From Bacteroidota bacterium (GTDB taxonomy: Bacteria > Bacteroidota > Ignavibacteria > SZUA-365): a DNA stretch of 64,000 nucleotides. Shown piece after piece: positions 35,816 to 58,765 of the stretch. The number at the start of each line of letters is the position of its first letter. Positions within the stretch are counted from its first letter, which is position 1. A program made the position numbers and the translations under genes. Below the pieces are notes generated by a model. That model searched no databases. It had not been told where the DNA came from and saw only the letters and a list, made by a program, of their open reading frames with translations. Where the stretch lies: NCBI GenBank assembly GCA_014860565.1, contig JACZJN010000068.1:23152-87151 (forward strand), given 5' to 3'.

Positions 35816-38800
35816 CTACCGCAATTCGGGCAGACGGCCGGGGGTCCACGGCGCGTTCTGCTGCTCGAGGACGTTCTGTATCGTCGGGAGCTCGGCTTCG
35901 CCCATGCTGCGCAGCGCGTCGAGTATCGGACGCAGGAGTGTGACAACATGCTCGATTTCCTGTCGATGCTGCGGTGTGGGACCGGAGGTGGAACTCCACA
36001 TCCCGTAGGCCACTTCCTGAAGCCGTTCGATCACGGATGGGGGCTGGACGCCGTTGCGCTCGCTGATGGTCTTGTCGCCGTTGAGCTGGCGGTCGACTTC
36101 ACGCAACCGATCACGCATCGAGGTCCACTGTGTACGCAGGGCCGGATCCAGTTTTGGTGTGACAAGCATGGTTTTCTCCAGTACCAGCAACCGCTCCTGC
36201 AGTTCCGCCGCATACCTCTGCGCACCAATTCCCACGCGTTGCACTTCCATCACCCGCTTGTGAAACGCCGCGAGCGCCCCGGGATCCTGCGCCGGCAAGG
36301 TGGTGTTACCCAGGACCCGCGTCGTGAACGATACCGGACCGGCGAGCGGGGTCTCCACCCCGTTCTCCACCATCGCCATGGCGACAGTGTATTGCCCGGG
36401 CATGGCCAGCAGGGCGCGGTGCTCGTTGGTCTTGCTGTCCTTCCCCACGGGAGTGGTGCTGGTATAGCGCAGATCCCAGGTCGTGCGCTGCACACCGGAT
36501 TTCACTGGCTCTGTCAGCTGCCGCACAACGTTCCCCTGCATGTCGCGCACGGTGAACAGCAGATACGGCGCCACCTCGTCGTCTTCCGCACGCAATGCGT
36601 CCCATCCGGGATACGGCGGCGTCTTTTTCTCTTTGCGCAGCTTCTTCTCCTCTTCCTGGCGCTGCTGCTTGCGGGACTTGTACCCCTCCTTCACGAAGTA
36701 GGTGAACATCGCGCCGAAGTCAGGATTCGGTGCGCTGAAGAAGGTCTCGCCCTGGCTGCCGATGGCGCGCTGCCGCGCTTCCACGTACATGAATGCGTCG
36801 CGGACGGGGAATAGCACGGCCTCCGTTTCGATCGTCGAAGCATCGATAGCGCGAAGAGGCGTATAGTCGTCGAGCACGTAGAAGCCGCGACCGAACGTGG
36901 CCAGCACGAGATCGTTTTCACGCTTCTGTATCGTGAGATCCTTCACGGCGATGGTCGGCAGACCGGATTTCAGCTGAATCCATTTCTTCCCGCCGTCGAC
37001 ACTGGTCTGCACGCCGAATTCCGTTCCGACGAAAAGCAGTGTGGGTTTGACATGATCCTCCACCAGGGCGTATATCGGTGCGTTGTCGGGGAGATTCGAG
37101 GTGATGGATGTCCATGTGCGGCCGCGGTCCGCGCTTTTCATCACATAGGGTTTGAAATCCGCCATCTTGTGATTGTCGAAACATGCGTACACCGTATTCG
37201 CATCATGCTCCGAGGCGCGCAGGCAGCTGACATAAGTCATTTCCGGCACGCCGGGGATGCGGTCGATTTTGCGCCAGTTCTTGCCGGCGTCTTCGCTTAC
37301 CTGGATCAGGCCGTCGTCGGTGCCGACGTAGAGCAGACCTTCGACCTTGGGAGATTCGTCGAAGGATACGATGTTGCCGTACAGCGACGTGCTGGCGTTC
37401 TTCGCCACCGCCTCCGGCGACCACACCTGTCCCATGACGGGCAGGGTGTTGCGGTCGATCTGCCGCGTGAGATCGCCGGAAACTTTTACCCAGCTTTCGC
37501 CGCGGTCGTCGCTTCGGAAAAGGATGTTCGCTGCGAAATAGAGTCGGCTGTTGTTGTGCGGGCTGATCAGCAGCGGTGAATCCCAGTTCCATCGATACCC
37601 TTCCTCGCCCGGCGCGGGCTGCGGCTGAATGCTCAGCCGTTCGCCGCTCGCCTTGTCGAAGCGCACGAGTCCGCCGTACTGCGACTGCGCGTAGACGATG
37701 TTCGGATTCGCGGGATCGATCTGCGATTCGAATCCATCGCCGCCGTTGGTGAAGAACCAGTCCTCATTGAAAATGCCGTCGGCCTTGGTAGTACGCGACG
37801 GACCCCCGAGACTGTTGTTGTCCTGCGTGCCGCCGTAGACGTTGTAAAACGGCTCGGCGTTGTCGACCGCCACACGGTAGAACTGCGTCACGGAAAGATT
37901 CTCCTTGTAGCGCCACTGCTCTCCGCCGTCATACGTCTCGTACACGCCGCCGTCTCCGCCGATCAGCAGGTGCTGCGTGTTTGCGGGATCGATCCACAGC
38001 GCGTGATCGTCGACATGTCGGCGCCGATTGCCGAGACGGCGATCCGTCTTGAATCCGTCGGTGCTGACACGGGTATAGGTGTCGAGCGCATAGACTTTTT
38101 CCGGGTCCAGCGGATCGCACACGAGTTCGTTGTAGTATTGCGGACTCACCGTCATGTACTTGCCCCGGCGTTCCCAGCTCGCCCCGCGATCGGTGGAACG
38201 GAAGACCCCGCCCTTGTCCTCCGCGGCCTCGACGATGGCATAAATGTAATCCGGATTCGCGGGGGAAATCGCCAGACCGATGCGGCCGACGTCGCCCGAG
38301 GGGAGTCCGCTCGACAGCGTGTCCCAGCTCGCTCCGGCATCGGTGCTTTTGAAAATGCGGCTTTCAGGTCCCCCGTTGATCAGCGTCCACACATGACGCC
38401 GACGCTGATACGACGCGGCGTAGAGAACCTTCGTGTCGCGCGGATCCATGACCACATCCGTCACGCCGGTGTTTTCACTGATCGTGAGCACGGGAGTCCA
38501 CGACTTCCCGGCGTCGGTGGTTTTGTAAAGACCGCGGTCGCCGCCGGGTCCCCAGAGCGGACCCTGTGCCGCCACGTACACGATGCGGGAGTCCGTCGGA
38601 TCCACCACGATCTTTCCAATGTGCTCGGACTTCTTCAGACCCATGTTCTTCCAGCTCTTCCCTCCGTCGGCACTGCGGTACACCCCGTCTCCCCAGGAGA
38701 CCGAGCGCTGCGAATTATTCTCGCCGCTCCCCACCCACACGATATGCGGATTGTTCGGATCCATGGTCACGCAGCCGATGGAGTACGATCCCTCTTTCTC

Positions 38801-39091
38801 GAACACGGGTGAAAAGCTGATGCCGTCGTTGGTGGTCTTCCACACACCGCCCGAGGCTACGGCGACGTAATACTCCGCCGTGTTGCGCGGGTTGACGGCG
38901 AAATCGATGATGCGTCCCGACGGCAGCGCCGTGCCGATATGCCGGAATTTCAGACCGGAGAGTGTCGAGGAATTGAGTTCCTTTTTCTTCCCCGCCTCCG
39001 GCGTTGCTTCGTCTTCATCCTGCGCGCGGAGGGGAAGAACAATCAGAGCCAGAAGAAAGAATGCGATGGCGAGTCGTAGCATGTACTTCAT
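35816..39091 (-). CDS. Secreted BNR/Asp-box repeat protein of the sortilin/VPS10-like (GH74-like beta-propeller) type
   Basis: Signal peptide [24 protein letters not shown]. Multiple S-x-D-x-G-x-(S/T)-W Asp-box repeats ([68 protein letters not shown]) spaced as in two tandem propellers. Confidence 0.7.
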
Positions 39092-43252: not shown

Positions 43253-43318
43253 AACGTCTTCTCCTGCCTCCTGCTTCCTGCTTCCTGCTTCCTGCCTCCT
43301 GCCTCCTGCTTCCTACAT
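43253..43318. repeat. Eight tandem copies of a heptamer (CYTCCTG on the plus strand, CAGGARG on the minus strand) between the sigma-54 regulator stop and the yfcC-like start
   Basis: Read directly: ctcctgc ctcctgc ttcctgc ttcctgc ttcctgc ctcctgc ctcctgc ttcctac. Confidence 0.6.
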
Positions 43319-44743
43319 CTGTGGATCCATCAGCCGGTATTCCTTCACCTTCGTCTGCATGGTCTTGTAATCGATCTGCAGGATGCGGGCGGCCTTGGCC
43401 TTGTTCCAGCCCGTGCGTTTCAGCGTTTCGAGGAGGATTTGCCGTTCGATCTGTGCCGTGTGTTTGCGCACATGATCCTTGAGCGGGACGCCCTGCTCGA
43501 TATCATTCTCGTCGATTTCAGCGATTGCGATGGACGCACGGGCGCGGCGCTCGGCGTCGAGCTCGAGATCGAGATGATCGGTGGTGATGAATTCGTCGGC
43601 GAACAGTACGGCACGGCGCACGACGGCGCGAAGCTGTGCGACGTTCCCCGGCCAATTATATGCCAGCATCTTGTCGAGGGCCTTGGGAGTGAAGCCGTTG
43701 ATGGACTTATTGAGTTCCTTGTTGCTCTCCTGTATGAAGCGCGTCGCCAGATAAGGAATATCTGTCTTTCGCTCACGCAGGGAAGGGACGTGGAAGCTGT
43801 ATTCGTTGAGACGGTAGAAGAGATCCGGCCGGAATTCCTTTTTCTCGATCAGGTCGTGGAGATCCTTGCTCGTCGAAACAATGAGGCGGGCGTCAACCGG
43901 TATGGGTGTCTCGCTGCCGAGACGTGTGAGCGTGCGCGTCTGCAGGCTGCGGAGCAGTCGCGACTGCTGCCGCTGCGGGAAGGCGGAAACTTCATCGAGG
44001 AAGAGCGTTCCACTGTGCGACTGTTCCCACTTCCCCTGCTGCGTGTTGGCTGCCCCCGAAAAGGCACCGCGCTCGAATCCGAACAGTTCACGCTCCATCA
44101 TCGATTCGGAGAGCGCGTCGCACGCGATGGTGATAAAGGGTTTGGTCGCGCGGGGACTGGCGTCATGAAGGGCTTTGGCGACCAACGCCTTGCCCGTGCC
44201 CGGTTCTCCCGTGACGAGGATATCGAATTTCGTTCCGGCAATGCGCTTGATCGTCGTCACAAGTTCCATGATCACGTCGCTGGTGCCCATGCGCTGCAGC
44301 AACTCGTCCTGCTGCTGTTGGGGTTCTGCTTTCGGCTCCTGATATTTCCGCCGCATCAAGCGCTCGTCAAGCGCACGGGAGAGGAACTGAATCATCTCCC
44401 CCGTCTCGAATGGTTTGGCAATATAATCGAAGGCGCCTGCCTTCATCGCGTCCACGGCACCCGGGACACCCGCAAGCGCAGTCATGAACATCACGGGAAT
44501 CTCCGGATTGATGCGCCGCATCCTGAGCATGACCTCCCTGCCGTCCATGCCAGGCATGAGCACGTCGAGGACAACGGCATCGGGCGTTTCACGGCGGAAG
44601 AGTTCCAGTGCGGTATCTCCATCCAATGCCATCATGGCCGTCAATCCCTGCCGTTCAAACAAACGCTTGAGGAGGATGCACATATCCTCTTCATCGTCAA
44701 CGATGAGGATTTTCATTCCGCGATATTTTTCAAGCCCATCCAT
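43313..44743 (-). CDS. Sigma-54-dependent Fis-family response regulator (REC + AAA+ sigma-54 activator + HTH)
   Basis: REC domain (KILIVDDEEDM...LDVLMPGMDG). Walker A GEPGTGK. GAFTGA-type loop variant (ERGAFSGA). Arginine finger region. C-terminal HTH AARILQIDYKTMQTKVKEY. Confidence 0.85.
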   Translation of the reverse strand: MDGLEKYRGMKILIVDDEEDMCILLKRLFERQGLTAMMALDGDTALELFRRETPDAVVLDVLMPGMDGREVMLRMRRINPEIPVMFMTALAGVPGAVDAMKAGAFDYIAKPFETGEMIQFLSRALDERLMRRKYQEPKAEPQQQQDELLQRMGTSDVIMELVTTIKRIAGTKFDILVTGEPGTGKALVAKALHDASPRATKPFITIACDALSESMMERELFGFERGAFSGAANTQQGKWEQSHSGTLFLDEVSAFPQRQQSRLLRSLQTRTLTRLGSETPIPVDARLIVSTSKDLHDLIEKKEFRPDLFYRLNEYSFHVPSLRERKTDIPYLATRFIQESNKELNKSINGFTPKALDKMLAYNWPGNVAQLRAVVRRAVLFADEFITTDHLDLELDAERRARASIAIAEIDENDIEQGVPLKDHVRKHTAQIERQILLETLKRTGWNKAKAARILQIDYKTMQTKVKEYRLMDPQM

Positions 44744-45233
44744 GAGGGGCCTCCAACTGTAACGAGTGCACTAAAATACGGGAGAAGAGTATCTTTTTCA
44801 ACATCAACAGGGATATTATTCCCTTATTTTTTTGTCAGGAAGTCCCTGGCTGTTTGCGCTCGGACAGCACGTATCCGCCGCAGGAGAATACTCAGCCGTT
44901 GAGAACTGAACTCACCGGCCGAGAACTGATGATATATGCAACAACGAACGTTGAAATATACAACAGCACTTTAATTCAATCATATCAATTACTTAGCACT
45001 CTTTTCCCACGCAGAGGCGGTTTTGCCATGTTGAGTTATTCAACACAACCTCTGATTCGGTCATTGGCGCCAGAGAGCGGTAAAGTCCCATATATCCTTG
45101 CGTTACAATCACTTACATCGATTTACGGGAAGCGGAGGTCCAGCGATTTTATCTGGCAAGGTAGTTGTAGTGTATTTCAACAGTTGATTGTTGAATCACA
45201 CAACAACTCACCACCAGAAATCTGGAGTTCGTC
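44744..45233 (+). promoter_or_regulatory. AT-rich intergenic regulatory island upstream of the GcvH-fold/FeS/NrfD operon, with repeated TTCAACA/TGTTGAA palindromic sites and a sigma-54-like -24/-12 element
   Basis: The GC content drops sharply relative to the flanks. Palindrome GTTGAgttatTCAAC lies at about 45031-45047. An imperfect 13-bp inverted repeat gtgtatttcaaca-N6-tgttgaatcacac lies at about 45163-45196. TGGCAA-N5-TTGTA at 45154-45169 resembles the sigma-54 consensus TGGCAC-N5-TTGCA. GGAG Shine-Dalgarno 8 nt before the ATG at 45234. Confidence 0.4.
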
Positions 45234-45908
45234 ATGGTTGCCTTATTCGTCATTCTGTTCGTCGTTTTGCTGCTTGGCATCGATCTGTTCATACAGGCGC
45301 GCAGCAAACAGTATCCCATCATGGCAGCTGCTCCCGCAGGACAGGCATATACGCCCGACCGGGAGACGCTGCGAATTCCGAAAAGCGTCTTTTTCCATCC
45401 CGGACACACTTGGGCACGCCTGCAGGATGGCGATTCCCTTGAAGTCGGCATTGATGATTTCGTCCAGAAAGCACTGGGCGGCATCGACCGGGTCCTGCTT
45501 CCCAACGTCGGAGAGTTTGTCCGCCAGGGCGATGCCGTGATCACCGTCGGTCATCACGACAAGCAGCTCACGCTCGTTGCGCCTGCAAGCGGCTACGTGC
45601 GCTCGGTCAATCGCGACGCTGTGGAGAATCCGGGTATGGTCAGCGAAAATCCGTATCGCGATGGCTGGCTCATGATGATCGAGCCCGCTGAACTCGCAAG
45701 CAACCTCAGCGTACTGCATGTGGCTGAAAACGCAGTGTCCTGGATCAAGGAAGAAGTGAAACGTTTCCGCGAGTTTCTCAACGCAAGCGCTGCCGAGCCG
45801 GCACTGGTTGGAGAGGCGATGTTCGACGGCGGTGCCCCCATGGCCGGCGTGCTCGAGCAGCTCGACGACAAGCATGTGCTCGATTTCGAGCAGCAATTCC
45901 TGCGGTAG
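45234..45908 (+). CDS. Membrane-anchored glycine-cleavage H-protein-like (GcvH-fold) protein
   Basis: N-terminal TM helix MVALFVILFVVLLLGIDLFI. The remainder aligns by eye to GcvH: GHTWARLQDGDSLEVGIDDFVQKALGGIDRVLLPNVGEFV...VITVGHHDKQLTLVAPASGYVRSVN...NPYRDGWLMMIEP, versus GcvH HEWV...VGITDHAQ..LGDIVFVELPEVG...ESVKAASDIYAPVSGEVV.VN...PYG.GWLFK. A Lys sits near the lipoyl-lysine position. Confidence 0.6.
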   Translation: MVALFVILFVVLLLGIDLFIQARSKQYPIMAAAPAGQAYTPDRETLRIPKSVFFHPGHTWARLQDGDSLEVGIDDFVQKALGGIDRVLLPNVGEFVRQGDAVITVGHHDKQLTLVAPASGYVRSVNRDAVENPGMVSENPYRDGWLMMIEPAELASNLSVLHVAENAVSWIKEEVKRFREFLNASAAEPALVGEAMFDGGAPMAGVLEQLDDKHVLDFEQQFLR

Positions 45909-45965
45909 GATTCCGCACTCTCGTGTTTTCACTTTCTTTCACCATGGAATTCAGGAGACAGACTC

Positions 45966-46871
45966 ATGCCACACGCCATTCTCGTTGACCTGACCGAATG
46001 CGTGGGATGCGGCGCCTGCCGTGACGCCTGCCAGCAGGTTCATCATTTCCCGCAGGAAGAGTGCACATCCCTCGATGCCCACAATTTCACCACGCTCCGC
46101 AAAATCGAAACCGCGGACGGGCAGGAAGTCTTCGCCCGCCAGATGTGCCAGCACTGCCAGGATCCCGCCTGCGCGTCTGCATGTCTGGTGGGGGCGCTCG
46201 AAAAAACCCGCGACGGCGCGGTCACATGGGACACCGACAAATGCATCGGCTGCCGTTACTGCATGGTTGCCTGCCCGTTCGATATTCCCAAGTACGAGTG
46301 GGACACCAACAATCCCAAGGTGCGCAAATGCACCATGTGTTATACGGAACGCCATCTGGACGCGGATTCGAAGACCGATAAAGAGGGATACGTGCTCGAT
46401 CGCAGCGGGAAGCGCGTCAGTATCGACGGACGCCTGGTCACCGCGGAAGATCGCGACATGATCGTCGAGATGACCACGAACAGCGACGGCAAGCGTGCCA
46501 CGGCCTGTAGCGTGGCCTGCCCCATCGGCGCGACTCTCTACGGAGAACGCTCCGAATTGCTCGCCGAGGCGCACCGCCGCATTCGCAGCAACCCCGATTC
46601 GTACGTGCAGAAAGTCTACGGGCAGACAGAAGTGGGCGGGACGTCCGTGTTCTACCTCTCCAGCATGCCGTTTGAGCAGCTCGGCTTCTCGACGAAGCTC
46701 GACACCGAAGCACTCCCGCTGCGCACCTGGCGCGTCCTCGAAAAACTGCCGGACGTCATTCTGACCGCAGGCGTCGCGCTCGGCGCGGTGTACTGGATCA
46801 CCAATCGGCGCGAGGATGTGCGGAAGTTCGAAGAGGAAGTGAAGAATCAACGCTCACAAAAGAAATCCTGA
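45966..46871 (+). CDS. 4Fe-4S ferredoxin-type iron-sulfur subunit of the PsrB/DmsB/HybA family (four cluster motifs) with C-terminal TM anchor; no Tat signal
   Basis: Cluster motifs CVGCGACRDAC, CQHCQDPACASAC, CIGCRYCMVACP and CTMC. C-terminal hydrophobic helix VILTAGVALGAVYWI. AGGAGA Shine-Dalgarno. Confidence 0.8.
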   Translation: MPHAILVDLTECVGCGACRDACQQVHHFPQEECTSLDAHNFTTLRKIETADGQEVFARQMCQHCQDPACASACLVGALEKTRDGAVTWDTDKCIGCRYCMVACPFDIPKYEWDTNNPKVRKCTMCYTERHLDADSKTDKEGYVLDRSGKRVSIDGRLVTAEDRDMIVEMTTNSDGKRATACSVACPIGATLYGERSELLAEAHRRIRSNPDSYVQKVYGQTEVGGTSVFYLSSMPFEQLGFSTKLDTEALPLRTWRVLEKLPDVILTAGVALGAVYWITNRREDVRKFEEEVKNQRSQKKS

Positions 46872-46881
46872 GGAGGACGCA

Positions 46882-48102
46882 ATGAAATCCTTTCTGTCCC
46901 GTATCACATTCTGGAAAGCGACAGCTGCGGTTTTCCTCCTTGGCGGACTGGCCACAACGATCGTCCGTTTCGGCTGGGGACTCGGTGCGTCGACCAATCT
47001 GAGCGACATGACTCCATGGGGATTGTGGATCGGCTTCGACGTCGTGACCGGCGTCGGACTGGCTGCAGGCGGCTTTACACTTGCCGGCATCGTGCACATT
47101 TTCCATATCAAGCGCTTCCATCCGATCGTGCGTCCCGCTATCCTGACCGCGTTCCTGGGCTACTGCCTGGTCATCGTCGGACTGATGTTCGACCTCGGGC
47201 GTCCATGGGCGATCTGGCATGCGCTCATCTATCAGAATCCCCATTCGGTGCTGTTCGAAGTCGCCATGTGCGTGATGACCTATACCGCAGTACTCGCCCT
47301 CGAGTTCTCACCGGTCGTGCTTGAGCGCTTCCACCTTCACAAGTTGCTGAAATTTGTCAAGGCCATCACCGTTCCCCTGATCATTCTCGGCATCCTGCTC
47401 TCCATGCTGCATCAGTCTTCCCTCGGCTCGCTCTACCTGATCGTGCCGCAGAAAATGCACCCGTACTGGTATTCACCGATGCTGCCCGTGCTCTTCTTCG
47501 TCAGCGCCGTGGCCGTGGGACTCGGCATGACCATCGTCGAGTCGTACCTGAGCGCCCGTGCATTCCAGAAAACACTCGAGACGCCTCTGCTGCGAGATCT
47601 CACTCGCATCATGATCGGCGTGCTGCTCGTGTATTTCACTATGCGCGCAATCGATCTCTTCCACCGCAACGCGTTTGGGTTCCTTCTCGACGGCAGCTTC
47701 GAAACCATGATGCTGTACCTGGAAGTCGCCTTCATGCTGATCATTCCCCTGCTGCTCTTCAATCTTCGCGAATGGGGACGCTCACGCCAGGGACTGTTCT
47801 TCACGGCGTTTTCCGTCGTGCTCGGCTTCATCACCAACCGGCTGAACGTGACGATGACCTCCCTGGAAGGCTACTATAAGACCAATTTTGGGGTCTCGTA
47901 CTTCCCCGGCATCGGTGAACTCGCAGTTACCATTTCAATCGTGACCGTGGGCTTCGTGATCTTTGCGCTTGCGGTGAAGTATCTCCCGATTTTCCCTCAT
48001 CATGAGGAAGAAACCGTGCTACGGTTCGACGGCGCCCCGGCGCGCACGAATGAGAGCGCTTCCATGCACGCGACACCGGCGGCCGAACTGCGGCGCCACT
48101 GA
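46882..48102 (+). CDS. NrfD/PsrC-family polysulfide-reductase-type integral membrane (quinone-interacting) subunit
   Basis: About 10 TM helices with the NrfD-family pattern (WGLWIGFDVVTGVGLAAGGF..., LGRPW). GAGGAGG Shine-Dalgarno. Follows the FeS gene after a 10-nt gap. Confidence 0.8.
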   Translation: MKSFLSRITFWKATAAVFLLGGLATTIVRFGWGLGASTNLSDMTPWGLWIGFDVVTGVGLAAGGFTLAGIVHIFHIKRFHPIVRPAILTAFLGYCLVIVGLMFDLGRPWAIWHALIYQNPHSVLFEVAMCVMTYTAVLALEFSPVVLERFHLHKLLKFVKAITVPLIILGILLSMLHQSSLGSLYLIVPQKMHPYWYSPMLPVLFFVSAVAVGLGMTIVESYLSARAFQKTLETPLLRDLTRIMIGVLLVYFTMRAIDLFHRNAFGFLLDGSFETMMLYLEVAFMLIIPLLLFNLREWGRSRQGLFFTAFSVVLGFITNRLNVTMTSLEGYYKTNFGVSYFPGIGELAVTISIVTVGFVIFALAVKYLPIFPHHEEETVLRFDGAPARTNESASMHATPAAELRRH

Positions 48103-48109
48103 GGCTGAT

Positions 48110-48164
48110 GCCGGCTGCGATGCAGCGCACAACACCCGTGCACCGCAGCCGGCTGCATTTTTCC
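48110..48164 (+). terminator. Rho-independent terminator after the NrfD-like gene
   Basis: 10-bp stem gccggctgcg (48110-48119) pairs with cgcagccggc (48144-48153) across a 24-nt loop, followed by tgcattttt. Confidence 0.6.
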
Positions 48165-48222
48165 CTCGATCTGTATCATGTCTTCGTTTGATAAACTCCG
48201 GAAGATTCCAAGGCGGTCGGCA

Positions 48223-49005
48223 ATGAGCGTCATAATCGATACATCGTGCGATAACTGTGTCTGGGTGACTGCAGGCGTGCTCAACTACAAGTTGTGCGAC
48301 CGCGACTTTGACTGCGAACATTGTCCCCTCGATGCAGCCTTACGCGATCGCGCGAGCAGTTGTGTGGATAATGAAACCACACTATCCATGGCACGGCTTG
48401 ATTTTCCTGGCTGGAACGACCTGCCCGCCGAAGTCCAGCCGCTGCTCGAGCCTCTGCGCTCGCTGCAGCTCTGCCAGAGCGCCCGGTATTCCGCGCGTCA
48501 TGTCTGGGTGCGCCTCCTCGCATCCGGCATGGTGCGTCTGGGACTTGATAGTTTTGCCGCCGCCCTGCTTCCGGACGACGCTCAGCTCGTAACTGTCGCA
48601 CATAACACCGTATTGCGGGAAGGGGAGGCTTTTGGATGGGTCTATGCGTGGAATCAGACGCTTCCTCTCCCCGCACCTATTTCAGGTATGGTGGTCTGCC
48701 GCAACGGCGGACATCACGACTCGGTGGACAAGCTTCGTACAAGCCCGTATCGCGACGGATGCCTGCTCACGCTTTCCCCTTCCGTCGGTACGCTGGCTAC
48801 CGCACGCGTGTATTCTCCGGCAGTGCACTCAGGACGCATCCAACGTCACTGCCGCTCCATCGCCGGGAAGGTTGATCGTGCACTCGCCCATGCGGAACTC
48901 GGGCTCTGCCTCAACGACGGTGGTGAAGCAGTCCGTTCCCTCCCCCAGATGCTTGGTCAGGACCGTTACTGGAAGCTGATCAAACATTTCATTGGAGGAG
49001 AATAA
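48223..49005 (+). CDS. Second GcvH-fold paralog with Cys-rich (zinc-ribbon-like) N-terminus
   Basis: N-terminal C-x2-C-x12-C-x5-C-x2-C (SCDNCVWVTAGVLNYKLCDRDFDCEHCP). The GcvH-like region HVWVRLLASGMVRLGLDSFAAALLPDDAQLVTV...APISGMVVCRN...SPYRDGCLLTL is paralogous to 45234..45908. The start may alternatively be the ATG at 48178. Confidence 0.5.
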   Translation: MSVIIDTSCDNCVWVTAGVLNYKLCDRDFDCEHCPLDAALRDRASSCVDNETTLSMARLDFPGWNDLPAEVQPLLEPLRSLQLCQSARYSARHVWVRLLASGMVRLGLDSFAAALLPDDAQLVTVAHNTVLREGEAFGWVYAWNQTLPLPAPISGMVVCRNGGHHDSVDKLRTSPYRDGCLLTLSPSVGTLATARVYSPAVHSGRIQRHCRSIAGKVDRALAHAELGLCLNDGGEAVRSLPQMLGQDRYWKLIKHFIGGE

Positions 49006-49073: not shown

Positions 49074-50681
49074 ATGCGGCTCTATCACACGCTCAGTTTC
49101 AAGCTCATCTCTCTTATTTTCTTCGCGCTGCTCGTGGTCACGCTCGGGGTGAGCTACGTGCATGTCGAGGCGCAGAGTTCGTTTCTCGAACGGACAGTGC
49201 ACCTCTGTGCCGAGCGGGCAAGCGCCTTCGCCAAAGCCGCCCTGCTCCAGGGAATGCAGGAAAACCACCCCGACGTTATTCGACAGACTATTTACGATAT
49301 CGGTGTCGCGCGTGGAATCGAGCGCATCAGCATCTACGACAAGAACGGTCGGATCGCCTACTCCTCGGCGCTCGCCGAAGTAAACCGCGTCGTCGACACC
49401 AAGGATCTTGCCTGCGCACCCTGTCATGGCGAAAGTTCGGATTTCACGCAAACGAGCAGCGAAGAATTCATGCGCATCTACGATTCCGATCAGGGACATC
49501 GCGTGCTCGGACTGATCACCCCGATCAAGAACATGCCGTCCTGCGCCGACGCCGCCTGCCACGTGCACCCCGCCGAACAGACCGTCCTTGGCGTGCTCGA
49601 CGTGCACATGTCTCTCGCAAGCATCGACGCACAGGCTGCCAAGGTGCGTACAGTCGTGATACTCTCCTCCCTGCTTACATTTATCATCCTCGCTGCGGGT
49701 ACTGCTGTTTTTGTGTTCTTCTTCGTACACAAACCCGTCAAGTCTGTGATCGAGGGAACACATAAGCTCGCAACGGGAGATCTCGAGCATACCATCCCGC
49801 TCAAGCGCAAGGATGAGCTGGGACAGCTGGTCAAATCCTTCAACCGCATGGCCCACGAACTCGGGCGTACCAAGGGGCAGCTCGTCGAATGGTCGAATAC
49901 ACTCGAGGACAAGGTCGCCGCGAAAACCGAGGAACTCAACAAGGTACAGGCGCAAATCCTGCATATGGAAAAAATGGCGTCACTCGGAAAACTGAGTTCC
50001 GTCATCGCGCATGAACTCAACAATCCGCTCGCCGGGATTCTGACATATGCGCGTCTGATCGAGAAGCGGCTCGACAAACGTGAGCTTGACGAAGCGAAAT
50101 GCGCTGTGATGCAAAAGGATGTCGTGCTGATCGCCGAGGAGGCGCGTCGATGCGGCGATATCGTCAAAAACCTGCTCTTCTTCGCACGCGGACGCGAGGG
50201 CGAATACCGACAGGCAGATCTCAACGAGGTCATTGAGAAAACCATCAAGCTGGTACACCACAAGATCGATCTTTACGAAATCCGGCTCGAGGTGCATGTA
50301 CCCACCGAAACCGTGCTTGCGACCTGCGATCAGAATCAGATTCAGCAGGCGGTGCTCGCCATCATCATGAATGCGATCGAAGCGATGCCGGAGGGTGGCC
50401 GTCTGGCGGTTTCATTGTCCCATGATGAGACAAACGCCAGCATACGCGTCTCCGATACGGGCGTGGGAATTTCCGAATCCGATCAGCGCATGATTTTCGA
50501 ACCGTTCTTCACAACAAAGGAAGAAGGACACGGCACAGGGCTCGGCCTCTCCGTTGCCTATGGCATTATCCAGAGCCATGAAGGGCGCATCACCGTCGAC
50601 AGCACGCCTGGAAAGGGTGCGACGTTCACCATCATCATTCCCATTTTCGGTCCCGCTTCATATCGGCAGGAGAACGCATGA
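49074..50681 (+). CDS. Sensor histidine kinase with periplasmic domain carrying two c-type heme-binding motifs
   Basis: N-terminal TM helix, then a periplasmic region with CAPCH (CXXCH) and CADAACH (CX4CH, as in cytochrome c3). A second TM helix (VVILSSLLTFIILAAGTAVFVFFFV) is followed by HAMP, HisKA H-box SVIAHELNNPLAGI and HATPase G-boxes (SDTGVGI, GTGLGLS). Confidence 0.8.
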   Translation: MRLYHTLSFKLISLIFFALLVVTLGVSYVHVEAQSSFLERTVHLCAERASAFAKAALLQGMQENHPDVIRQTIYDIGVARGIERISIYDKNGRIAYSSALAEVNRVVDTKDLACAPCHGESSDFTQTSSEEFMRIYDSDQGHRVLGLITPIKNMPSCADAACHVHPAEQTVLGVLDVHMSLASIDAQAAKVRTVVILSSLLTFIILAAGTAVFVFFFVHKPVKSVIEGTHKLATGDLEHTIPLKRKDELGQLVKSFNRMAHELGRTKGQLVEWSNTLEDKVAAKTEELNKVQAQILHMEKMASLGKLSSVIAHELNNPLAGILTYARLIEKRLDKRELDEAKCAVMQKDVVLIAEEARRCGDIVKNLLFFARGREGEYRQADLNEVIEKTIKLVHHKIDLYEIRLEVHVPTETVLATCDQNQIQQAVLAIIMNAIEAMPEGGRLAVSLSHDETNASIRVSDTGVGISESDQRMIFEPFFTTKEEGHGTGLGLSVAYGIIQSHEGRITVDSTPGKGATFTIIIPIFGPASYRQENA

Positions 50682-52036
50682 CCGCCTTTGATCCCTCGGA
50701 TATCACCATCATGATCGTCGACGATGAACCCAGCGTACGGCAATCGCTGGCCGCCTGGTTCGAGGATGACGGCTACTCCATTGTCACCGCACAAAATGCA
50801 GCCGAAGCCCTGCAATGCATGCAGGAACACAGCGTGGACATCATTCTTCTCGACATCAAGATGCCTGGCATGGATGGACTCGCTCTGCAGGACAGAATCC
50901 GGGAATTCAACCAGCAAGTCATCATCATCATCATCACGGCGTTTGCTACGGTCGACACCGCGGTACGAGCACTCAAAGCCGGTGCCTTTGACTATACGAC
51001 GAAGCCGGTCGATCCCGACGAACTATCTCACCTGGTGCTGAACGCCGTTGATAAAATCCGATTGCAGCGCGAGAACCTCGCCCTGCGCGAGAGCATCGAC
51101 CATCTGCAGTTCGTTGACGACATCATAGGCGAAAGCGGTCCGATGCAGCAGGTACTCGAACTGGTCAAAACGGTGGCTCCGACGGATTCCACTGTGCTGA
51201 TATTGGGAGAAAGCGGCACCGGGAAGGAACTCATCGCGCGGGCCATTCACATGAACAGCCGGCGGCGCTACTTCCCCATCATCCCGGTCAACTGCGGCGC
51301 ATTGCCCGAATCCCTGCTCGAAAGCGAATTATTCGGTCACGAGAAGGGTGCCTTTACCGGTGCCCAGTACCGCCGCAAGGGCAAATTCGAAATGGCGCAG
51401 GGCGGATCGCTGTTTCTCGATGAAATCGGAACCCTGAGCCTGAAATCACAGATCGACCTGCTCCGCGTGCTCGAAGACCGCGAATTTCATCGGCTCGGCG
51501 GCGAGCGCACGGTGAAAGCAGATTTTCGCCTTATCTGCGCGACAAACGTGGACCTGGAAAAGGAAGTAAAAAGCGCCGTTTTCCGGGAGGATTTATACTA
51601 TCGCGTGAACGTATTCACCATTACCCTTCCACCTCTGCGTGAACGACGTGCAGACATTCCCCTGCTTGCTTCGCACTTCGTGGAGCGCCACGCGCGTTCG
51701 ATGAACCGCCCGGCGCCGGAACTGAGTTCAGAAGCGATGGACGTGCTGCTCACACATGACTGGCCCGGCAATGTCCGTGAGTTGGAAAACGCGATCGAAC
51801 GTGCGGTGGTGATCAACAAAACCGGCATCATCACGCCGGATGATCTGCCCGTTCAGGTGGGGAGAAACAGCGTTCCACCGCGCGGGTCCTCGCTCTCCGA
51901 AATGGAGGAAGAGCATATCAGTCATATGCTGGAAGAGAACAACTGGAATATCTCGCGGACAGCAGAGAAATTGGGCATAGACCGCGTCACGCTCTACAAT
52001 AAAATCGAAAAGTACGGTCTGAAGCGTCCAGAATAA
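50678..52036 (+). CDS. Sigma-54-dependent Fis-family response regulator (NtrC-like)
   Basis: Overlaps the kinase gene by ATGA. REC domain (IMIVDDEPSV...LDIKMPGMDG). Walker A GESGTGKE. GAFTGA motif. C-terminal HTH TAEKLGIDRVTLYNKIEKY. Confidence 0.85.
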   Translation: MTAFDPSDITIMIVDDEPSVRQSLAAWFEDDGYSIVTAQNAAEALQCMQEHSVDIILLDIKMPGMDGLALQDRIREFNQQVIIIIITAFATVDTAVRALKAGAFDYTTKPVDPDELSHLVLNAVDKIRLQRENLALRESIDHLQFVDDIIGESGPMQQVLELVKTVAPTDSTVLILGESGTGKELIARAIHMNSRRRYFPIIPVNCGALPESLLESELFGHEKGAFTGAQYRRKGKFEMAQGGSLFLDEIGTLSLKSQIDLLRVLEDREFHRLGGERTVKADFRLICATNVDLEKEVKSAVFREDLYYRVNVFTITLPPLRERRADIPLLASHFVERHARSMNRPAPELSSEAMDVLLTHDWPGNVRELENAIERAVVINKTGIITPDDLPVQVGRNSVPPRGSSLSEMEEEHISHMLEENNWNISRTAEKLGIDRVTLYNKIEKYGLKRPE

Positions 52037-52578
52037 TGTCCGGCGTGAGGGAAGTCACCGTCATACCGCTGGGCACACATCCGCGCGATGTGTCTCTTGA
52101 AGAGCTGCGATCCGGCATCGAGCAGATTCTGCCCGTCCGCATCACCATCAGGCCTCGACCGGTTGACATAGACTCGGCGCTCGACGCCTCCCGCAAGCAA
52201 TACCACTCCACATCCGTTCTCGCACTCCTCCTGCAGCAGGCCGAGCCGCACACCGAACGCCTTCTCGGCATCACCCCATATGACCTGTTTGTCCCGGTGC
52301 TGACATTCGTGTTCGGCCAGGCGCAGCTCAACAACCTCGCTGCCGTATTCTCCACATTCCGACTGCACAACGAATTCTACGGAATCCCGCGTTCCGGGGA
52401 ACAGCTTGCCGCACGCTGTTTGAAAGAAGCGCTGCACGAACTCGGTCACACCTTCGGCCTGCGGCACTGCATCGATCATCCCTGCGTGATGAATTCCTCC
52501 ACCTACGTCGAGGATATCGATTTGAAGCCTGCGGATTTCTGTTTGCCTTGCCGCGAACATCTGGAAATCGTACTATAA
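52036..52578 (+). CDS. Archaemetzincin-family zinc metallopeptidase (peptidase M54)
   Basis: HELGHTFGLRHCIDHPCVM matches the archaemetzincin HExxHxxGxxHCxxxxCxM signature. Its start codon overlaps the regulator stop codon (TAATG). Confidence 0.75.
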   Translation: MSGVREVTVIPLGTHPRDVSLEELRSGIEQILPVRITIRPRPVDIDSALDASRKQYHSTSVLALLLQQAEPHTERLLGITPYDLFVPVLTFVFGQAQLNNLAAVFSTFRLHNEFYGIPRSGEQLAARCLKEALHELGHTFGLRHCIDHPCVMNSSTYVEDIDLKPADFCLPCREHLEIVL

Positions 52579-53987: not shown

Positions 53988-54064
53988 TTGAACTTCGACG
54001 CTTCACCCGTTGAGCCCGCTTTCTCCCCGCTTCAAAGCGATGCGTGTGCCAACGCGTGCCCTCC

Positions 54065-54131
54065 GTGATGCATTATTTCCAGCTTCCGAACGGAAGTGCA
54101 TTCTCCCGGAAATAATGCATCACGGTTTTTT
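54065..54131 (+). terminator. Hairpin terminator (16-bp perfect inverted repeat with a nested inner palindrome) followed by a T7 run
   Basis: gtgatgcattatttcc (54065-54080) pairs with ggaaataatgcatcac (54108-54123). The loop contains the palindrome cttccgaacggaag. Followed by ggttttttt. Confidence 0.55.
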
Positions 54132-54134
54132 TCT

Positions 54135-54190
54135 TGACAACAGCCGCCCAATGTATTATGTTTATCCACACAGTTTAACCATATGGTTAA
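54135..54190 (+). promoter_or_regulatory. Putative sigma-70-type promoter (TTGACA-N16-TATGTT) plus perfect 16-bp palindromic operator TTAACCATATGGTTAA immediately upstream of the TetR gene
   Basis: TTGACA at 54135-54140. The palindrome ttaaccatatggttaa at 54175-54190 lies between the -10 region and the TetR start (54208), the classic TetR autoregulatory operator position. Confidence 0.45.
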
Positions 54191-54207
54191 TCTATTTGGT
54201 AAACATC

Positions 54208-54840
54208 ATGGCAAGTACAACATTTTCAGAGACCGAGCTTCAGATCCTGGCTGCCGCGCTCGAGGAGTTCAGTATGCACGGCAGGCAGGGTGCGCGTATG
54301 CAGTGCATCGCAGACCGTGCCGGCCTGAACAAAGCCCTTCTGCACTATTACTTTCGCAGCAAGGACCGCCTGTATGAGGAAGTGTTCACCTACGTGTTTC
54401 ACACCTATTTCTTTCAGCTCGCCGATACGCTGCGCGCGGAAGGCGACTTCCCTACCGTGCTTCGCGCGTTCATTCACCGGTATGTCGATATGCTGAATGA
54501 AAATCCCGCCCTGCCGATGTTCCTGCTGCGCGAGGTGGCTGAAGGTGCGCCGGTGTTCAGCCGCCGTCTCCCCGAAATCGTACAGGCGAATCCGCTGGGA
54601 ATGCCGAAGCTGCTGCTGGCGTTATTCGAGGAAAGCAGCCGAAGCGGCGAATCGCGGAAGACGGATCCGTTTCAGACATTGATATCGATCATGGGCGCCT
54701 GCATCTATTTTTTTGCGGGATTCCCGATTTTCTCCACACTGATACCGGAACTCAGGGATCGGCGGGATCAGCTGATCGAAGAACGGAAGGATCATATTTT
54801 CGAACTTGTGTATTACGGACTCAAACCCCGAACGGAGTAA
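54208..54840 (+). CDS. TetR/AcrR-family transcriptional regulator (CecR/YbiH-like position)
   Basis: N-terminal HTH ILAAALEEFSMHGRQGARMQCIADRAGLNKALLHYYFRSKDRLYEEVF. The start is taken at the ATG at 54208. Confidence 0.8.
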   Translation: MASTTFSETELQILAAALEEFSMHGRQGARMQCIADRAGLNKALLHYYFRSKDRLYEEVFTYVFHTYFFQLADTLRAEGDFPTVLRAFIHRYVDMLNENPALPMFLLREVAEGAPVFSRRLPEIVQANPLGMPKLLLALFEESSRSGESRKTDPFQTLISIMGACIYFFAGFPIFSTLIPELRDRRDQLIEERKDHIFELVYYGLKPRTE

Positions 54841-54844
54841 TTTC

Positions 54845-56161
54845 ATGACACGTACAGTCATATTCATACTGTTGCTGGGTGTCCCTTTCCTCGGCAACGT
54901 CCCCGGACTCCGGGCGCAACGCATGCTCAGCCTTGAGGAAGCGCAGCAACGGGCGCACGATCATGCGGAGGAAGTCAAGATCGCGCGCCTCGAAGTGGAA
55001 CACGCCGAGCGCGGCGTCGACATTGCACGAACTCAGCGCCTGCCGCGTCTCGATCTGACTGCCTCGTACACCCACATCAGCGAAACCGGCGGCATCGATC
55101 TGGCCATTCCCGGACTGATTTCCCGCAGCATTCGCTTCGGGGACGGCAACGTGTACGAAAGCGCGATAACCGCGAGTGTGCCGCTTTTCACCGGCTTTCG
55201 CCTGGAAACGGGACAGCGCATGCAGGAAGCGCAGGTCGCCATTACCGGTGCGCAATTGAAGGGGACAGAAACCTCTCTGCACAATCGCGTCGCCATCGCC
55301 TACCGCCAGGCACAATTGGCTCTGCGTTCGCGGAGGATTTACGAAGAACAGCTGCAGTATCTCGGCGCGCAGCTCGATCTGCTCAAGAAGCTGCAGGCAC
55401 AGGGACAGATTCTGCCCTACGATACATTGCTGCTTTCCACGCGCATGAGCGCGCTTCGAGTCGAACGCGCCTCCGCCCATTCCGCGTATCGCAATGCGCG
55501 TCTGACGGTTGCCGATTTCGGAGATCTCGATCCCGATTTCGATGTCTCCTCCGACGTCAGCGTCACCTCGACGCTGCCGATCGAGGATGAGGAGGCGCTT
55601 CTGCAGGCCGCTCTTCTGCAGCGGAGCGATCTCGCCGTACTGAGAGAAATGAAAGCTCTGGGTGACCAGCGCGTGCGCGCGGAGAAAGCCGCGTATCTCC
55701 CCGCTCTTTCGGCCTTTGCTTCGTATCGCTATGGGAAACCGGGGGTCGACCAGGTGTCCAACGCGTGGATGAACTACTACACCGCCGGCCTCGCCCTGCA
55801 GTGGAACCTGTGGTCGTGGGGCGGCGATCGCGGCCGCGTCGATCAGCAGGAAATCCAACGACAGGAGACAGACCTGCGCTACGCACGCCTCGAACGTCAG
55901 CTCCGCACGAATATCCGCAGCTTGCGCAACGATCTTGGCGTCCTCGCGGAAACGCGTGCCATGCTCGACGATCAGGTGCGGCAGGAAAGCGTCAAACGCG
56001 ACCTGCTGCAGGCCCGCCTCTCGCAAGGTCTGGCGACGGCGACTGAACTCGTCGACGCGGAAACCGCCCGTACCACGGCTCTGCTCCGCCGCGAGCAGAG
56101 CGACATCCAGTACCTGATAAAACTCACCGAACTCGCGAATGTAATCGGCAAGGACATATAG
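54845..56161 (+). CDS. TolC-family outer-membrane efflux protein
   Basis: Signal peptide MTRTVIFILLLGVPFLGNVPGLRAQ. Two OEP repeats with coiled-coil-rich helical regions. Length is typical, about 440 aa. Confidence 0.8.
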   Translation: MTRTVIFILLLGVPFLGNVPGLRAQRMLSLEEAQQRAHDHAEEVKIARLEVEHAERGVDIARTQRLPRLDLTASYTHISETGGIDLAIPGLISRSIRFGDGNVYESAITASVPLFTGFRLETGQRMQEAQVAITGAQLKGTETSLHNRVAIAYRQAQLALRSRRIYEEQLQYLGAQLDLLKKLQAQGQILPYDTLLLSTRMSALRVERASAHSAYRNARLTVADFGDLDPDFDVSSDVSVTSTLPIEDEEALLQAALLQRSDLAVLREMKALGDQRVRAEKAAYLPALSAFASYRYGKPGVDQVSNAWMNYYTAGLALQWNLWSWGGDRGRVDQQEIQRQETDLRYARLERQLRTNIRSLRNDLGVLAETRAMLDDQVRQESVKRDLLQARLSQGLATATELVDAETARTTALLRREQSDIQYLIKLTELANVIGKDI

Positions 56162-56172
56162 GAGACGAATTC

Positions 56173-58761: not shown

Positions 58762-58765
58762 CTAC

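Follow-up and report, generated by a model that had tools for sequence, protein, structure and literature searches.

The locus described here raises the question of whether two GcvH-like proteins, encoded on either side of a pair of respiratory-type genes, carry lipoate and, if they do not, what use is made of the GcvH fold. In the window, by which we mean the whole 64-kb stretch of DNA that was analysed, both open reading frames are present on the plus strand where the original prediction had placed them: G1 (45234..45908) encodes a membrane-anchored GcvH-like protein of 224 aa, and G2 (48223..49005) a soluble one of 260 aa. A gene call made independently on a Logan contig placed the two genes identically, with G2 again 260 aa long and equivalent to window positions 48223-49005, and, since most G2 homologs are also 260 aa in length, 48223 is preferred as its start over the in-frame position 48178.

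Fold, paralogy and added domains of G1 and G2

G1 and G2 are two distinct polypeptides, each a genuine homolog of GcvH. With the Pfam GCV_H model (PF01597; gathering score 22.2 bits), G1 scored 67.8 bits (E=1e-18, residues 57-173) and G2 35.6 bits (E=9.6e-9), both above the gathering score, and a profile of the G1 family matched solved GcvH structures, 1onl at E=8e-28. The AlphaFold models (mean pLDDT 82.2 for G1 and 80.8 for G2) superpose on such structures, G1 on 1onl_A with a TM score of 0.93 and an rmsd of 1.4 Å, and G2 on 3a8j_E with 0.86 and 1.9 Å; identity to the solved structures in structural alignments is 34% and 21%, respectively, and the H-x-W, VGI(T/D) and PY..GW motifs are kept. 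The two proteins align with each other by BLASTP at 27% identity over 109 gap-free residues (E=7e-11), and the profile-profile comparison (hhalign) gives a probability of 99.9% (E=1.6e-32, 184 columns), the similarity spanning the GcvH domain and a common C-terminal extension of about 60 aa. The fold and paralogy originally proposed for the pair are borne out by these comparisons, as are their different N-terminal tethers; the common sequence pattern given for them holds approximately, one spacing differing by a single residue between G1 and G2. Unlike GcvH itself, both proteins fall below the NCBIfam cut-off for that family (TIGR00527, 115.85 bits; G1 68, G2 30), both add a transmembrane (TM) helix or a Cys4 module along with the C-terminal extension, and neither has gcvP or gcvT nearby.

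G1 begins with the expected TM helix (residues 2-24, 45237..45305, plus strand), which is apparent from the sequence and is modelled as a helix by AlphaFold, and continues with a disordered linker, the GcvH domain (approximately aa 52-173) and a helical C-terminal extension with a DGG loop. No basic residues precede the TM helix and Arg/Lys follow it (QARSKQ), so that the GcvH-like domain is predicted to face the cytoplasm, a location that the receiver-domain fusions described below also require. The invariant DGG loop (aa 198-200, 45825..45833, plus strand) lies inside a segment (aa 188-202) of low model confidence that is probably flexible.

G2 has an N-terminal Cys4 module, the GcvH domain and the same kind of extension, with DGG at aa 232-234 (48916..48924, plus strand). 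The original prediction had read its N-terminus as a zinc-ribbon-like motif of five cysteines, and the spacing it gave is correct (C9-x2-C12-x12-C25-x5-C31-x2-C34); the N-terminus is indeed Cys-rich, but C9 is not conserved, and the conserved motif is C12-x12-C25-x5-C31-x2-C34 (CVW..AG.L.YKLCDRDFDCEHCPLDAALR; 48256..48324, plus strand), which is invariant in the family alignment. A phmmer search recovered this Cys4 module in 709 cluster representatives, and it occurs as tandem copies in other GcvH-like proteins. It matches no Pfam or NCBIfam model and is modelled with low confidence (pLDDT 40-52); it is a putative metal or cluster module.

The lipoyl-lysine position

In the alignment with E. 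coli GcvH, Lys65 of the latter falls opposite Asp109 of G1. In the AlphaFold model the turn is formed by His108-Asp109, and Lys110 opens the next strand, so that at the hairpin tip (His108-Asp109-Lys110, 45555..45563, plus strand) the lysine in GHHDKQL, earlier singled out for its closeness to the lipoyl site, sits one residue past the lipoyl column, and the alignment puts no lysine at the tip. Wallis and Perham (1994) reportedly showed that lipoyl domains are lipoylated only if the lysine is positioned exactly within the beta-turn. Within the G1 family the lipoyl column holds Lys in only 1 of 108 members, with Gly, Asp, Glu or Asn in the other 107, and the column after it is a basic position (47 Arg, 31 Lys, 13 His) in which Lys is not conserved and Arg is the commoner residue even among close G1 orthologs. 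In the G2 family, for which a missing lipoyl lysine had been correctly predicted, none of 120 members has Lys in the column. Judged from these alignments, neither G1 nor G2 can be lipoylated.

The idea that they are swinging-arm proteins like GcvH or LbpA, carrying lipoate or another acyl or sulfur group and handing an intermediate to the FeS/NrfD module or taking one from it, could draw on the clear GCV_H homology and fold, on Lys110 adjoining the hairpin tip, and on the HdrA-like and CCG-domain genes found near WOR-3 loci, which recall the pairing of Hdr-like proteins with LbpA. We consider it very improbable in view of the family counts, of the preference for Arg at the neighbouring position, and of the finding that no neighbourhood examined contains a gene for lipoate ligase or lipoyl synthase. 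LbpA and GcvH-L from S. pyogenes (PDB 5a35, a structural match for both models) likewise have the GcvH fold outside glycine cleavage and are encoded beside redox enzymes, but they keep the lipoyl lysine, are lipoylated and are accompanied by dedicated lipoate ligases, whereas the G1/G2 cluster has neither the lysine nor a ligase gene. The comparison to LbpA, a lipoate-binding protein of the sHdr sulfur-oxidation system (eLife 2018, PMC6067878), does not extend to the cofactor. Loss of the catalytic lysine might be expected of decaying, functionless gcvH copies. That explanation is the least credible of those considered and is already contradicted by the conservation data: both families persist in several phyla and keep residues beyond the hairpin invariant (HPGHTW, PY..GW, DGG and the Cys4 motif), synteny is kept, and G1 and G2 each have added domains of their own.

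A sigma-54-promoted signalling and respiratory cluster

G1 is followed on the plus strand by genes for a HybA/HmcB-like FeS protein (45966..46871), which has motifs for four [4Fe-4S] clusters and, towards its C-terminus, a TM helix followed by a basic tail, and a HybB/HmcC-like integral membrane protein of the NrfD family (46882..48102). After G2, on the same strand, come a sensor histidine kinase of HAMP-HisKA-HATPase architecture (49074..50681), with the motifs CAPCH (aa 114) and CADAACH (aa 157) in its periplasmic domain, a sigma-54-dependent response regulator (REC-AAA+-HTH_8, 50678..52036), and an archaemetzincin (Peptidase_M54, 52036..52578; HELGHTFGLRH, four Cys), the start codon of which overlaps the stop codon of the regulator. 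A second sigma-54 response regulator (43313..44743, minus strand) is divergent from the cluster and has no kinase of its own nearby. A sigma-54-type -24/-12 element, TGGCAAGGTAGTTGTA (45154..45169, plus strand), lies 81 nt upstream of the G1 start codon and is one of two matches to TGGCAN6TTGYW in the 64-kb window, versus 0.36 expected. Relatives have the same element at an equal distance upstream, and in most loci the first structural gene has a similar one ahead of it.

The cluster is conserved across many uncultured bacterial phyla. We found it in 80 species-representative MAG loci from about eight phyla, with members in Bacteroidota/Ignavibacteria, Acidobacteriota, Gemmatimonadota, Eisenbacteria, Planctomycetota, Myxococcota and Calditrichales, and independently gathered neighbourhoods agree with its make-up. 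In the 44 loci whose flanks extend for 7 kb or more in both directions, kinase and regulator are each present in 43, NrfD in 41, G1 in 38, the FeS protein in 38 (with 3 more fused to NrfD) and M54 in 26. Every one of the 76 kinases carries a CxxCH motif close to residue 114 and a Cx4CH motif close to residue 157. Two variants bear on the role of the GcvH-like domain. In WOR-3/TA06 the kinase, M54, the regulator and a Cys-module GcvH-like protein are retained with no FeS/NrfD genes, an arrangement that associates the GcvH-like protein with the regulatory core. In the other, a TM-REC-GcvH-like fusion (P0064) is encoded directly after a kinase with both haem motifs and beside FeS and NrfD genes, at a locus with no sigma-54 regulator and no M54; in this fusion a response regulator has the GcvH-like domain as its output, and the domain must be cytoplasmic.

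Docking or signal output, and the DGG loop

The GcvH fold thus seems to be used here for docking or signalling rather than to carry a cofactor, and we assign a probability of about 0.55 to the reading of G1 and G2 as cytoplasmic proteins for docking or signal output in a redox-sensing system not characterised so far. We infer its mechanism, with all physical interactions and the direction of signal flow, as follows. The system would be self-contained and expressed from the sigma-54 promoter. The periplasmic domain of the kinase, with its two haem-c binding motifs, would sense the redox state of the periplasm or quinone pool, probably in concert with the two proteins encoded between G1 and G2, the HybA-like FeS protein in the periplasm and the HybB-like membrane protein with its quinone site, and the kinase would phosphorylate the sigma-54 regulator to turn the operon on. 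G1, tethered to the membrane by its N-terminal helix, and G2, with its metal or cluster module, would link the phosphorelay and the archaemetzincin to the membrane module through GcvH-like domains acting in docking or signal output with no swinging arm, while their C-terminal helical extensions would expose the DGG loop for the archaemetzincin to recognise or cleave. Against this reading stand the lack of G1 in Gemmatimonadota and the lack of a Tat signal in the FeS subunit of the window, which makes assembly of the membrane module in this organism hard to explain.

The last step rests on co-variation. DGG is present in G2 at all 42 loci with M54 versus 2 of 20 without it (Fisher 1e-13, uncorrected for phylogeny and resting on perhaps three or four independent losses), and in G1 at 58 of 64 versus 1 of 9. 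Such contrasts also occur within phyla (Planctomycetota, Gemmatimonadota), the DGG tail is missing from the REC fusions, where M54 is lacking, and in the AlphaFold models DGG occupies a low-confidence loop between helices. G1 and G2 are possibly protease substrates; M54 is absent from about 40% of loci, and hence the GcvH-like proteins cannot depend on it for their function. The M54 protein of the window bears the signature of archaemetzincins (AmzA, human AMZ1/2), HEXXHXXGXXHCX4CXM...CXXC, a family of which the biological importance is very little known (PMC3427221). What sets the present case apart is that the DGG loop of G1 and G2 is a candidate archaemetzincin partner.

Gene clustering would be accounted for equally well if G1 and G2 had only a structural part, as cytoplasmic subunits of a new quinone-reactive membrane complex of the HybA/HybB type, the two-component system only regulating their expression. 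The FeS and NrfD genes lie between G1 and G2 within a single sigma-54 operon, G1 accompanies these genes in 38 of the 44 loci, and there is a weak resemblance to NqrA (8acy_A and 8a1y_A, probability 0.84-0.93, E ~0.1 in Foldseek; Pfam NQRA_N, E 0.02). The N-terminal barrel-sandwich hybrid domains of NqrA and RnfC are lipoyl/biotinyl-like, bear no prosthetic group and are structural in membrane redox complexes, although the resemblance of G1 and G2 to them is at the level of fold only. We regard this alternative as unlikely, if the most serious: the WOR-3/TA06 loci keep a GcvH-like protein in company with kinase, M54 and regulator and have no FeS/NrfD genes, the receiver-domain fusion makes the domain a phosphorelay output, an FeS subunit that bears a Tat signal is periplasmic whereas G1/G2 are cytoplasmic, and in Gemmatimonadota the FeS and NrfD proteins are fused and G1 is missing. 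A still less probable role is in the maturation or assembly of either the FeS subunit or the kinase with its haem, with M54 trimming the tail after cofactor insertion, by analogy with redox-enzyme maturation proteins and with C-terminal processing of hydrogenase large subunits. The FeS protein in the window has no Tat signal and would need some export route, the Cys4 module could hold a cluster, and the DGG/M54 co-variation is compatible with a processing step; however, G1 and G2 are found equally at loci whose FeS subunit bears a Tat signal (39 of 68), GcvH-like proteins also occur where FeS/NrfD are wholly absent, and neither G1 nor G2 resembles known maturation-protein families in Pfam or NCBIfam.

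Comparison with known systems shows that the genes between G1 and G2 have their best NCBIfam matches in HybA/HybB of E. coli hydrogenase 2 and HmcB/HmcC of Desulfovibrio, which are NrfC/NrfD-type modules (HmcB 223 and HybA 185 bits for the FeS protein, HmcC 334 and HybB 301 bits for the NrfD protein, all below equivalog cut-offs). They share with these an FeS subunit with a C-terminal anchor helix and an NrfD-family membrane partner, but lack a hydrogenase or multihaem cytochrome partner and, in FeS subunits of the window type, a Tat signal; association with GcvH-like proteins is undescribed for those systems. In regulatory layout, with a kinase and sigma-54 regulator beside or divergent from a sigma-54-promoted operon that begins with a small accessory protein, the cluster resembles ZraPSR of E. 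coli and BccR/cbcBA of Geobacter sulfurreducens, although ZraP, the divergently encoded accessory protein, is a periplasmic chaperone unrelated to GcvH. In G. sulfurreducens, the dedicated sigma-54 regulator BccR gives redox-dependent induction of the quinone-linked cbcBA module, an operon that, as described, differs in having no NrfD or GcvH-like genes (bioRxiv 10.1101/2021.04.15.440034). One version of the present cluster, from Anaeromyxobacteraceae, also has CbcA/CbcB-like genes.

The GcvH-like domain and its additions

The genes at 45234-45908 (+ strand, 224 aa) and 48223-49005 (+ strand, 260 aa), referred to here as G1 and G2, code for proteins which, judged from sequence comparison, are paralogs sharing the GcvH fold, in agreement with the original prediction. 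Both pass the gathering score of the Pfam GCV_H model (PF01597; 22.2 bits), with 67.8 bits for G1 and 35.6 bits for G2, and in a PDB profile search the G1-family profile matched solved H-proteins with an E-value of 8e-28. The AlphaFold models (mean pLDDT 82.2 for G1 and 80.8 for G2) superpose on H-protein structures, that of G1 on 1onl_A (TM 0.93, rmsd 1.4 A) and that of G2 on 3a8j_E (TM 0.86, rmsd 1.9 A). The two proteins are recognizably similar by BLASTP (E 7e-11), and hhalign comparison of the family alignments yielded a probability of 99.9% and an E-value of 1.6e-32 over 184 columns, extending from the GcvH domain through to the C-termini of both families. An alternative in-frame start for G2 is found at 48178; the genes called independently on a Logan contig of identical sequence are the same, with G2 at 260 aa, which corresponds to the start at 48223 and is also the length of most G2 homologs.

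In public databases these proteins are named "glycine cleavage system protein H" or "lipoate-binding protein". A lysine of G1 had been placed near the lipoyl site; however, the alignment puts no lysine at the hairpin tip. Lys65 of E. coli GcvH (ESVKA) is aligned to Asp109 in G1 and to Asn in G2, and the hairpin turn of the G1 model is formed by His108-Asp109, with the next strand starting at Lys110. Among all retrieved homologs, the lipoyl column contains Lys in only 1 of 108 G1-family members (Gly in 61, Asp in 17, Glu in 8 and Asn in 8) and in none of the 120 members of the G2 family. The position immediately following it is basic in the G1 family (Arg 47, Lys 31, His 13), alternating between Lys, Arg and His even in G1 orthologs of 63-84% identity. 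Both proteins score below the cut-offs of the GcvH equivalogs TIGR00527 and NF002270 (115.85 and 117 bits), at 68.0 and 72.3 bits for G1 and 30.2 and 43.6 bits for G2, respectively. No gcvP, gcvT or lpd genes occur in the window cluster or in the listed neighbourhoods of homologs, none of these neighbourhoods contains a lipoate ligase or lipoyl synthase gene, and shdr, lipoate ligase and LipS genes are absent from the window cluster and from the homologous loci L002, L004 and L086. These proteins have the GcvH fold yet are not lipoate carriers; the carrier reading was rejected in view of the column counts, the structural position of Lys110 and the absence of ligase genes from the listed neighbourhoods, and we are confident that neither G1 nor G2 is lipoylated. 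As regards function, the database labels are incorrect, and metabolic reconstructions relying on them would be misled for many uncultured phyla.

The GcvH-like domain carries N-terminal additions of three kinds: a membrane helix, Cys4 modules, or a receiver domain. No charged residue precedes the helix of G1 (aa 2-24), whereas Arg/Lys come directly behind it, ahead of a disordered linker. At the N-terminus of G2, a five-cysteine, zinc-ribbon-like motif had been proposed. Four of these cysteines are invariant (C12-x12-C25-x5-C31-x2-C34, within CVW..AG.L.YKLCDRDFDCEHCPLDAALR), whereas the first one (C9) is not conserved; the zinc-ribbon assignment did not hold up, as the sole conserved CxxC is C31-x2-C34, with the other two cysteines isolated, and no zinc-finger family was matched. 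No Pfam or NCBIfam model matched the 35-residue module, the only trace being zf-CHY on one relative (E 0.055), and AlphaFold modelled it poorly, with low confidence. A phmmer search with this module against 1.84 billion cluster representatives gave 709 matches, nearly all of them G2-like. In some relatives (P0233, P0263, P0289, P0332 and P0354), two or three copies of the module stand in tandem before the same GcvH-like domain and tail; the contigs found for P0289, P0354 and P0332 are only 1-2 kb long. A different four-Cys module is present in the Anaeromyxobacteraceae locus L004, where a 74-aa ORF (4457-4681; MTCPYLTE...FC...) lies ahead of the FeS gene; its "CP[FY]LxE..[FY]C" pattern, which found no family in Pfam and NCBIfam searches, is also fused N-terminally to GcvH-like proteins of the WOR-3 type (P0289, P0354). 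At the other end, the G1 and G2 families have in common a C-terminal extension composed of a helix, a loop with an invariant Asp-Gly-Gly (DGG), and further helices. The low model confidence of this loop suggests that it is exposed and flexible.

The gene cluster and its distribution

G1 and G2 belong, with little room for doubt, to a conserved system. Between them lie genes for an FeS protein (45966-46871, + strand) and an NrfD-family membrane protein (46882-48102, + strand), and G2 is followed on the same strand by a histidine kinase (49074-50681), a sigma-54 response regulator (50678-52036) and a Peptidase_M54 protein (52036-52578). The kinase gene shares positions 50678-50681 with the regulator gene, and the regulator stop overlaps the M54 start at 52036, an arrangement suggestive of coupled translation of all three genes. 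A second sigma-54 response regulator (43313-44743, - strand), with no kinase of its own, is divergent from the cluster, in a layout reminiscent of bccR next to cbcBA in Geobacter.

One genome per GTDB species was searched with the G2 alignment, yielding 80 loci, every one of them in a metagenome-assembled genome (MAG), from Bacteroidota/Ignavibacteria, Acidobacteriota, Gemmatimonadota, Eisenbacteria, Planctomycetota, Myxococcota and Calditrichales; the closest, with 83% identity in G2, is in a "Bacteroidetes bacterium" MAG, and another (L066) is in a MAG assigned to Ignavibacterium album. BLASTP of the locus ORFs against the window proteins revealed the same gene set in nearly all loci. For the 44 loci flanked by 7 kb or more on either side, the kinase was found in 43, the regulator in 43, NrfD in 41, the FeS protein in 38 (plus 3 fused to NrfD), G1 in 38 and M54 in 26. 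Genes are arranged either collinearly, as in the window, or divergently, with M54-regulator-kinase and G2-G1-FeS-NrfD-(second G1) on opposite strands. In an informative variant, that of Gemmatimonadota, G1 is missing and FeS and NrfD are fused, as in L029 (10956-13334) and L060 (11209-13326), where they form a single protein of 700-790 aa. Acidobacteria and Anaeromyxobacteraceae neighbourhoods reached via G1 homologs are consistent with the cluster, the latter containing in addition a cytochrome c7, a multihaem cytochrome and a Ni_hydr_CYTB protein.

Most loci have a sigma-54 -24/-12 element ahead of the first structural gene. The window copy, TGGCAAGGTAGTTGTA (45154-45169), is located 81 nt upstream of the start codon of G1, a spacing shared by close relatives, and is one of only 2 matches to the sigma-54 pattern in the entire 64 kb, versus 0.36 expected. 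Within the cluster, intrinsic terminators and sigma-70 promoters were at background level, with no convincing terminator breaking the row of genes. G1 and the FeS gene lie in one reading frame, with a single TAG and 19 codons between them; read-through or fusion was rejected in view of the Shine-Dalgarno-like AGGAGA before ATG 45966, the lack of a start codon between the genes, and the unrelated spacers in relatives.

The sensor region of the kinase gave no confident Pfam match (dCache_3 at best, E 0.043). It contains CAPCH (aa 114-118, 49413-49427) and CADAACH (aa 157-163, 49542-49562), both preceding the HAMP domain (aa 219-263) in a segment taken to be periplasmic. All 76 kinase homologs, from about eight phyla, have CxxCH near residue 114 and Cx4CH near residue 157, suggesting, from motif conservation, a c-type haem sensor domain with two putative haem sites.

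The FeS and NrfD proteins belong to the NrfC-type FeS (Fer4_11) and NrfD families, and are most similar to HmcB/HybA and HmcC/HybB, respectively, although below the NCBIfam equivalog cut-offs (FeS protein: HmcB 223 vs 420, HybA 185 vs 263; NrfD protein: HmcC 334 vs 550, HybB 301 vs 450). A twin-arginine signal is present in 39 of 68 FeS homologs, from other phyla. The window protein has no Tat signal, begins 11 residues ahead of the first CxxCxxC, and has no upstream in-frame start codon; this Tat-less type is found in Bacteroidota, Ignavibacteria, Calditrichales and a few others, and the cluster contains no gene for a Tat-bearing partner of the FeS subunit. Behind the anchor helix of this subunit comes a strongly basic tail; the N-terminus and alternate loops of NrfD are basic, as in N-in proteins of the HybB type. 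An inverted module facing the cytoplasm, considered as a reason for the missing Tat signal, is not supported by this charge pattern, which points to the usual orientation, so that the FeS subunit should still be periplasmic.

Two further variant arrangements are informative. In P0064-type proteins, a TM helix and a receiver domain precede the GcvH-like domain; the gene directly follows a kinase with the same two haem motifs, beside divergent FeS and NrfD genes, and the locus contains neither a sigma-54 regulator nor M54. The fusion makes the GcvH-like domain the output domain of a response regulator, and this domain must be cytoplasmic. In WOR-3/TA06 MAGs, the GcvH-like protein has extra Cys modules and stays together with M54, a sigma-54 regulator and a kinase of the PAS type that lacks haem motifs, and there are no FeS/NrfD genes; HdrA-like, CCG and FlpD genes are located nearby, with no lipoate ligase gene. 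The Cys-module GcvH-like protein thus goes with the regulatory core, and the haem-motif kinase goes with the FeS/NrfD pair.

The Asp-Gly-Gly loop and the archaemetzincin

The M54 protein displays the archaemetzincin signature (HELGHTFGLRH, with Cys 145, 150, 169 and 172) and matches Pfam Peptidase_M54 with an E-value of 1.6e-20. Its presence co-varies with that of the DGG loop, located at 45825-45833 in G1 and 48916-48924 in G2. The loop of G2 is retained in all 42 loci with M54 and in 2 of the 20 without it (Fisher test, 1e-13, kinship ignored), and that of G1 in 58/64 versus 1/9 (2e-6, kinship likewise ignored). In Planctomycetota, ADGGE is kept in Pirellulaceae and others, together with M54, and lost in Phycisphaerae, which lack M54; a single Gemmatimonadota locus has kept both QDGGE and M54, and the others have neither. 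The receiver-domain fusions have no DGG segment and their locus is without M54, and in WOR-3 both DGG and M54 are kept.

This co-variation is the most specific functional link that we found. Retention of DGG tracks M54, making the loop a candidate site of recognition or cleavage by the archaemetzincin; that M54 acts on it is, at this stage, a tentative proposition. Very little is known about the biological importance of archaemetzincins (PMC3427221), and the co-variation provides a concrete candidate substrate for a protease family with a poorly understood role.

Possible functions and relation to known systems

As the simplest model for these observations, we propose that G1 and G2 serve as cytoplasmic docking or signal-output proteins in a redox-sensing system that regulates itself. 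Acting with the periplasmic FeS protein and the NrfD protein with its quinone site, the haem-motif kinase would control the sigma-54 regulator, which would drive the operon starting with a GcvH-like gene, and the GcvH-like proteins would connect the phosphorelay, and the protease where present, to the membrane module. In this general form we assign the proposal a probability of about 0.55; the choice of any particular partner of G1 or G2 is doubtful. Alternatively, the GcvH-like proteins might be feedback partners of the sigma-54 regulator, as ZraP is in ZraPSR, a comparison which concerns layout only.

The main rival to docking or signal output has G1 and G2 as purely structural parts of a HybAB-type complex of a new kind. 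It seems unlikely, being weakened by the WOR-3 loci, where the GcvH-like protein persists without FeS/NrfD genes, and by the receiver fusion. A more elaborate possibility, also improbable as a whole, is that the GcvH fold was recruited as the effector domain of a signalling system not described before. The sigma-54 activator would then have G2 as a redox-sensing partner (Fe-S or Zn-thiolate), with G1 as the membrane-tethered paralog of G2. Regulated proteolysis would control both, the archaemetzincin cutting the exposed DGG loop; in some lineages, direct phosphorylation of the fused receiver would take its place. If true, the state of a haem-motif kinase and a HybAB-like quinone module would be coupled to transcription, and the first physiological substrate for a bacterial archaemetzincin would be at hand. 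Returning to the docking and signal-output reading, the cluster has the appearance of a sensor and effector dedicated to the redox state of respiration, in which a carrier fold stripped of its prosthetic-group site is re-used in a widely distributed set of genes.

A literature search found no description of this cluster or of such lysine-less GcvH-like proteins. While the fold is known, the loss of the carrier site, the three alternative N-terminal additions and the membership of this system appear to be undescribed. GcvH has the same fold, but G1 and G2 are without its lipoyl lysine; LbpA and GcvH-L are likewise GcvH-fold proteins outside glycine cleavage and are lipoylated, for which G1 and G2 lack the lysine. 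Among the closest known entities are also NqrA/RnfC, with barrel-sandwich domains free of a prosthetic group. The nearest known counterparts of the FeS/NrfD pair are the HybA/HybB and HmcB/HmcC modules. The Tat-less HybA-like subunit and the kinases with their two haem motifs pose further problems, which have now become accessible to study. ZraPSR and Geobacter BccR-cbcBA are comparable sigma-54 systems. Identity with the Geobacter cbcBA/BccR operon was considered and rejected, as its published description has no GcvH-like or NrfD genes (bioRxiv 10.1101/2021.04.15.440034). CbcA/CbcB-like genes were found only in a Myxococcota version of the cluster, and four-Cys ORFs of the L004 type might be counterparts of small hypothetical proteins in the Geobacter cbcBA operon.

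Upstream of the window cluster, very long ORFs of 1255-1819 aa occupy the - strand (11477-16936, 22741-26508, 26790-30878 and 31063-35316), and a neighbouring 1091-aa ORF (35816-39091) has BNR/Sortilin-type repeats. Downstream, the region at 54010-59869 contains genes for a TetR-family regulator, an outer-membrane efflux protein, an HlyD-type adaptor and an ABC-2 transporter, which appear unrelated to the GcvH-like proteins.
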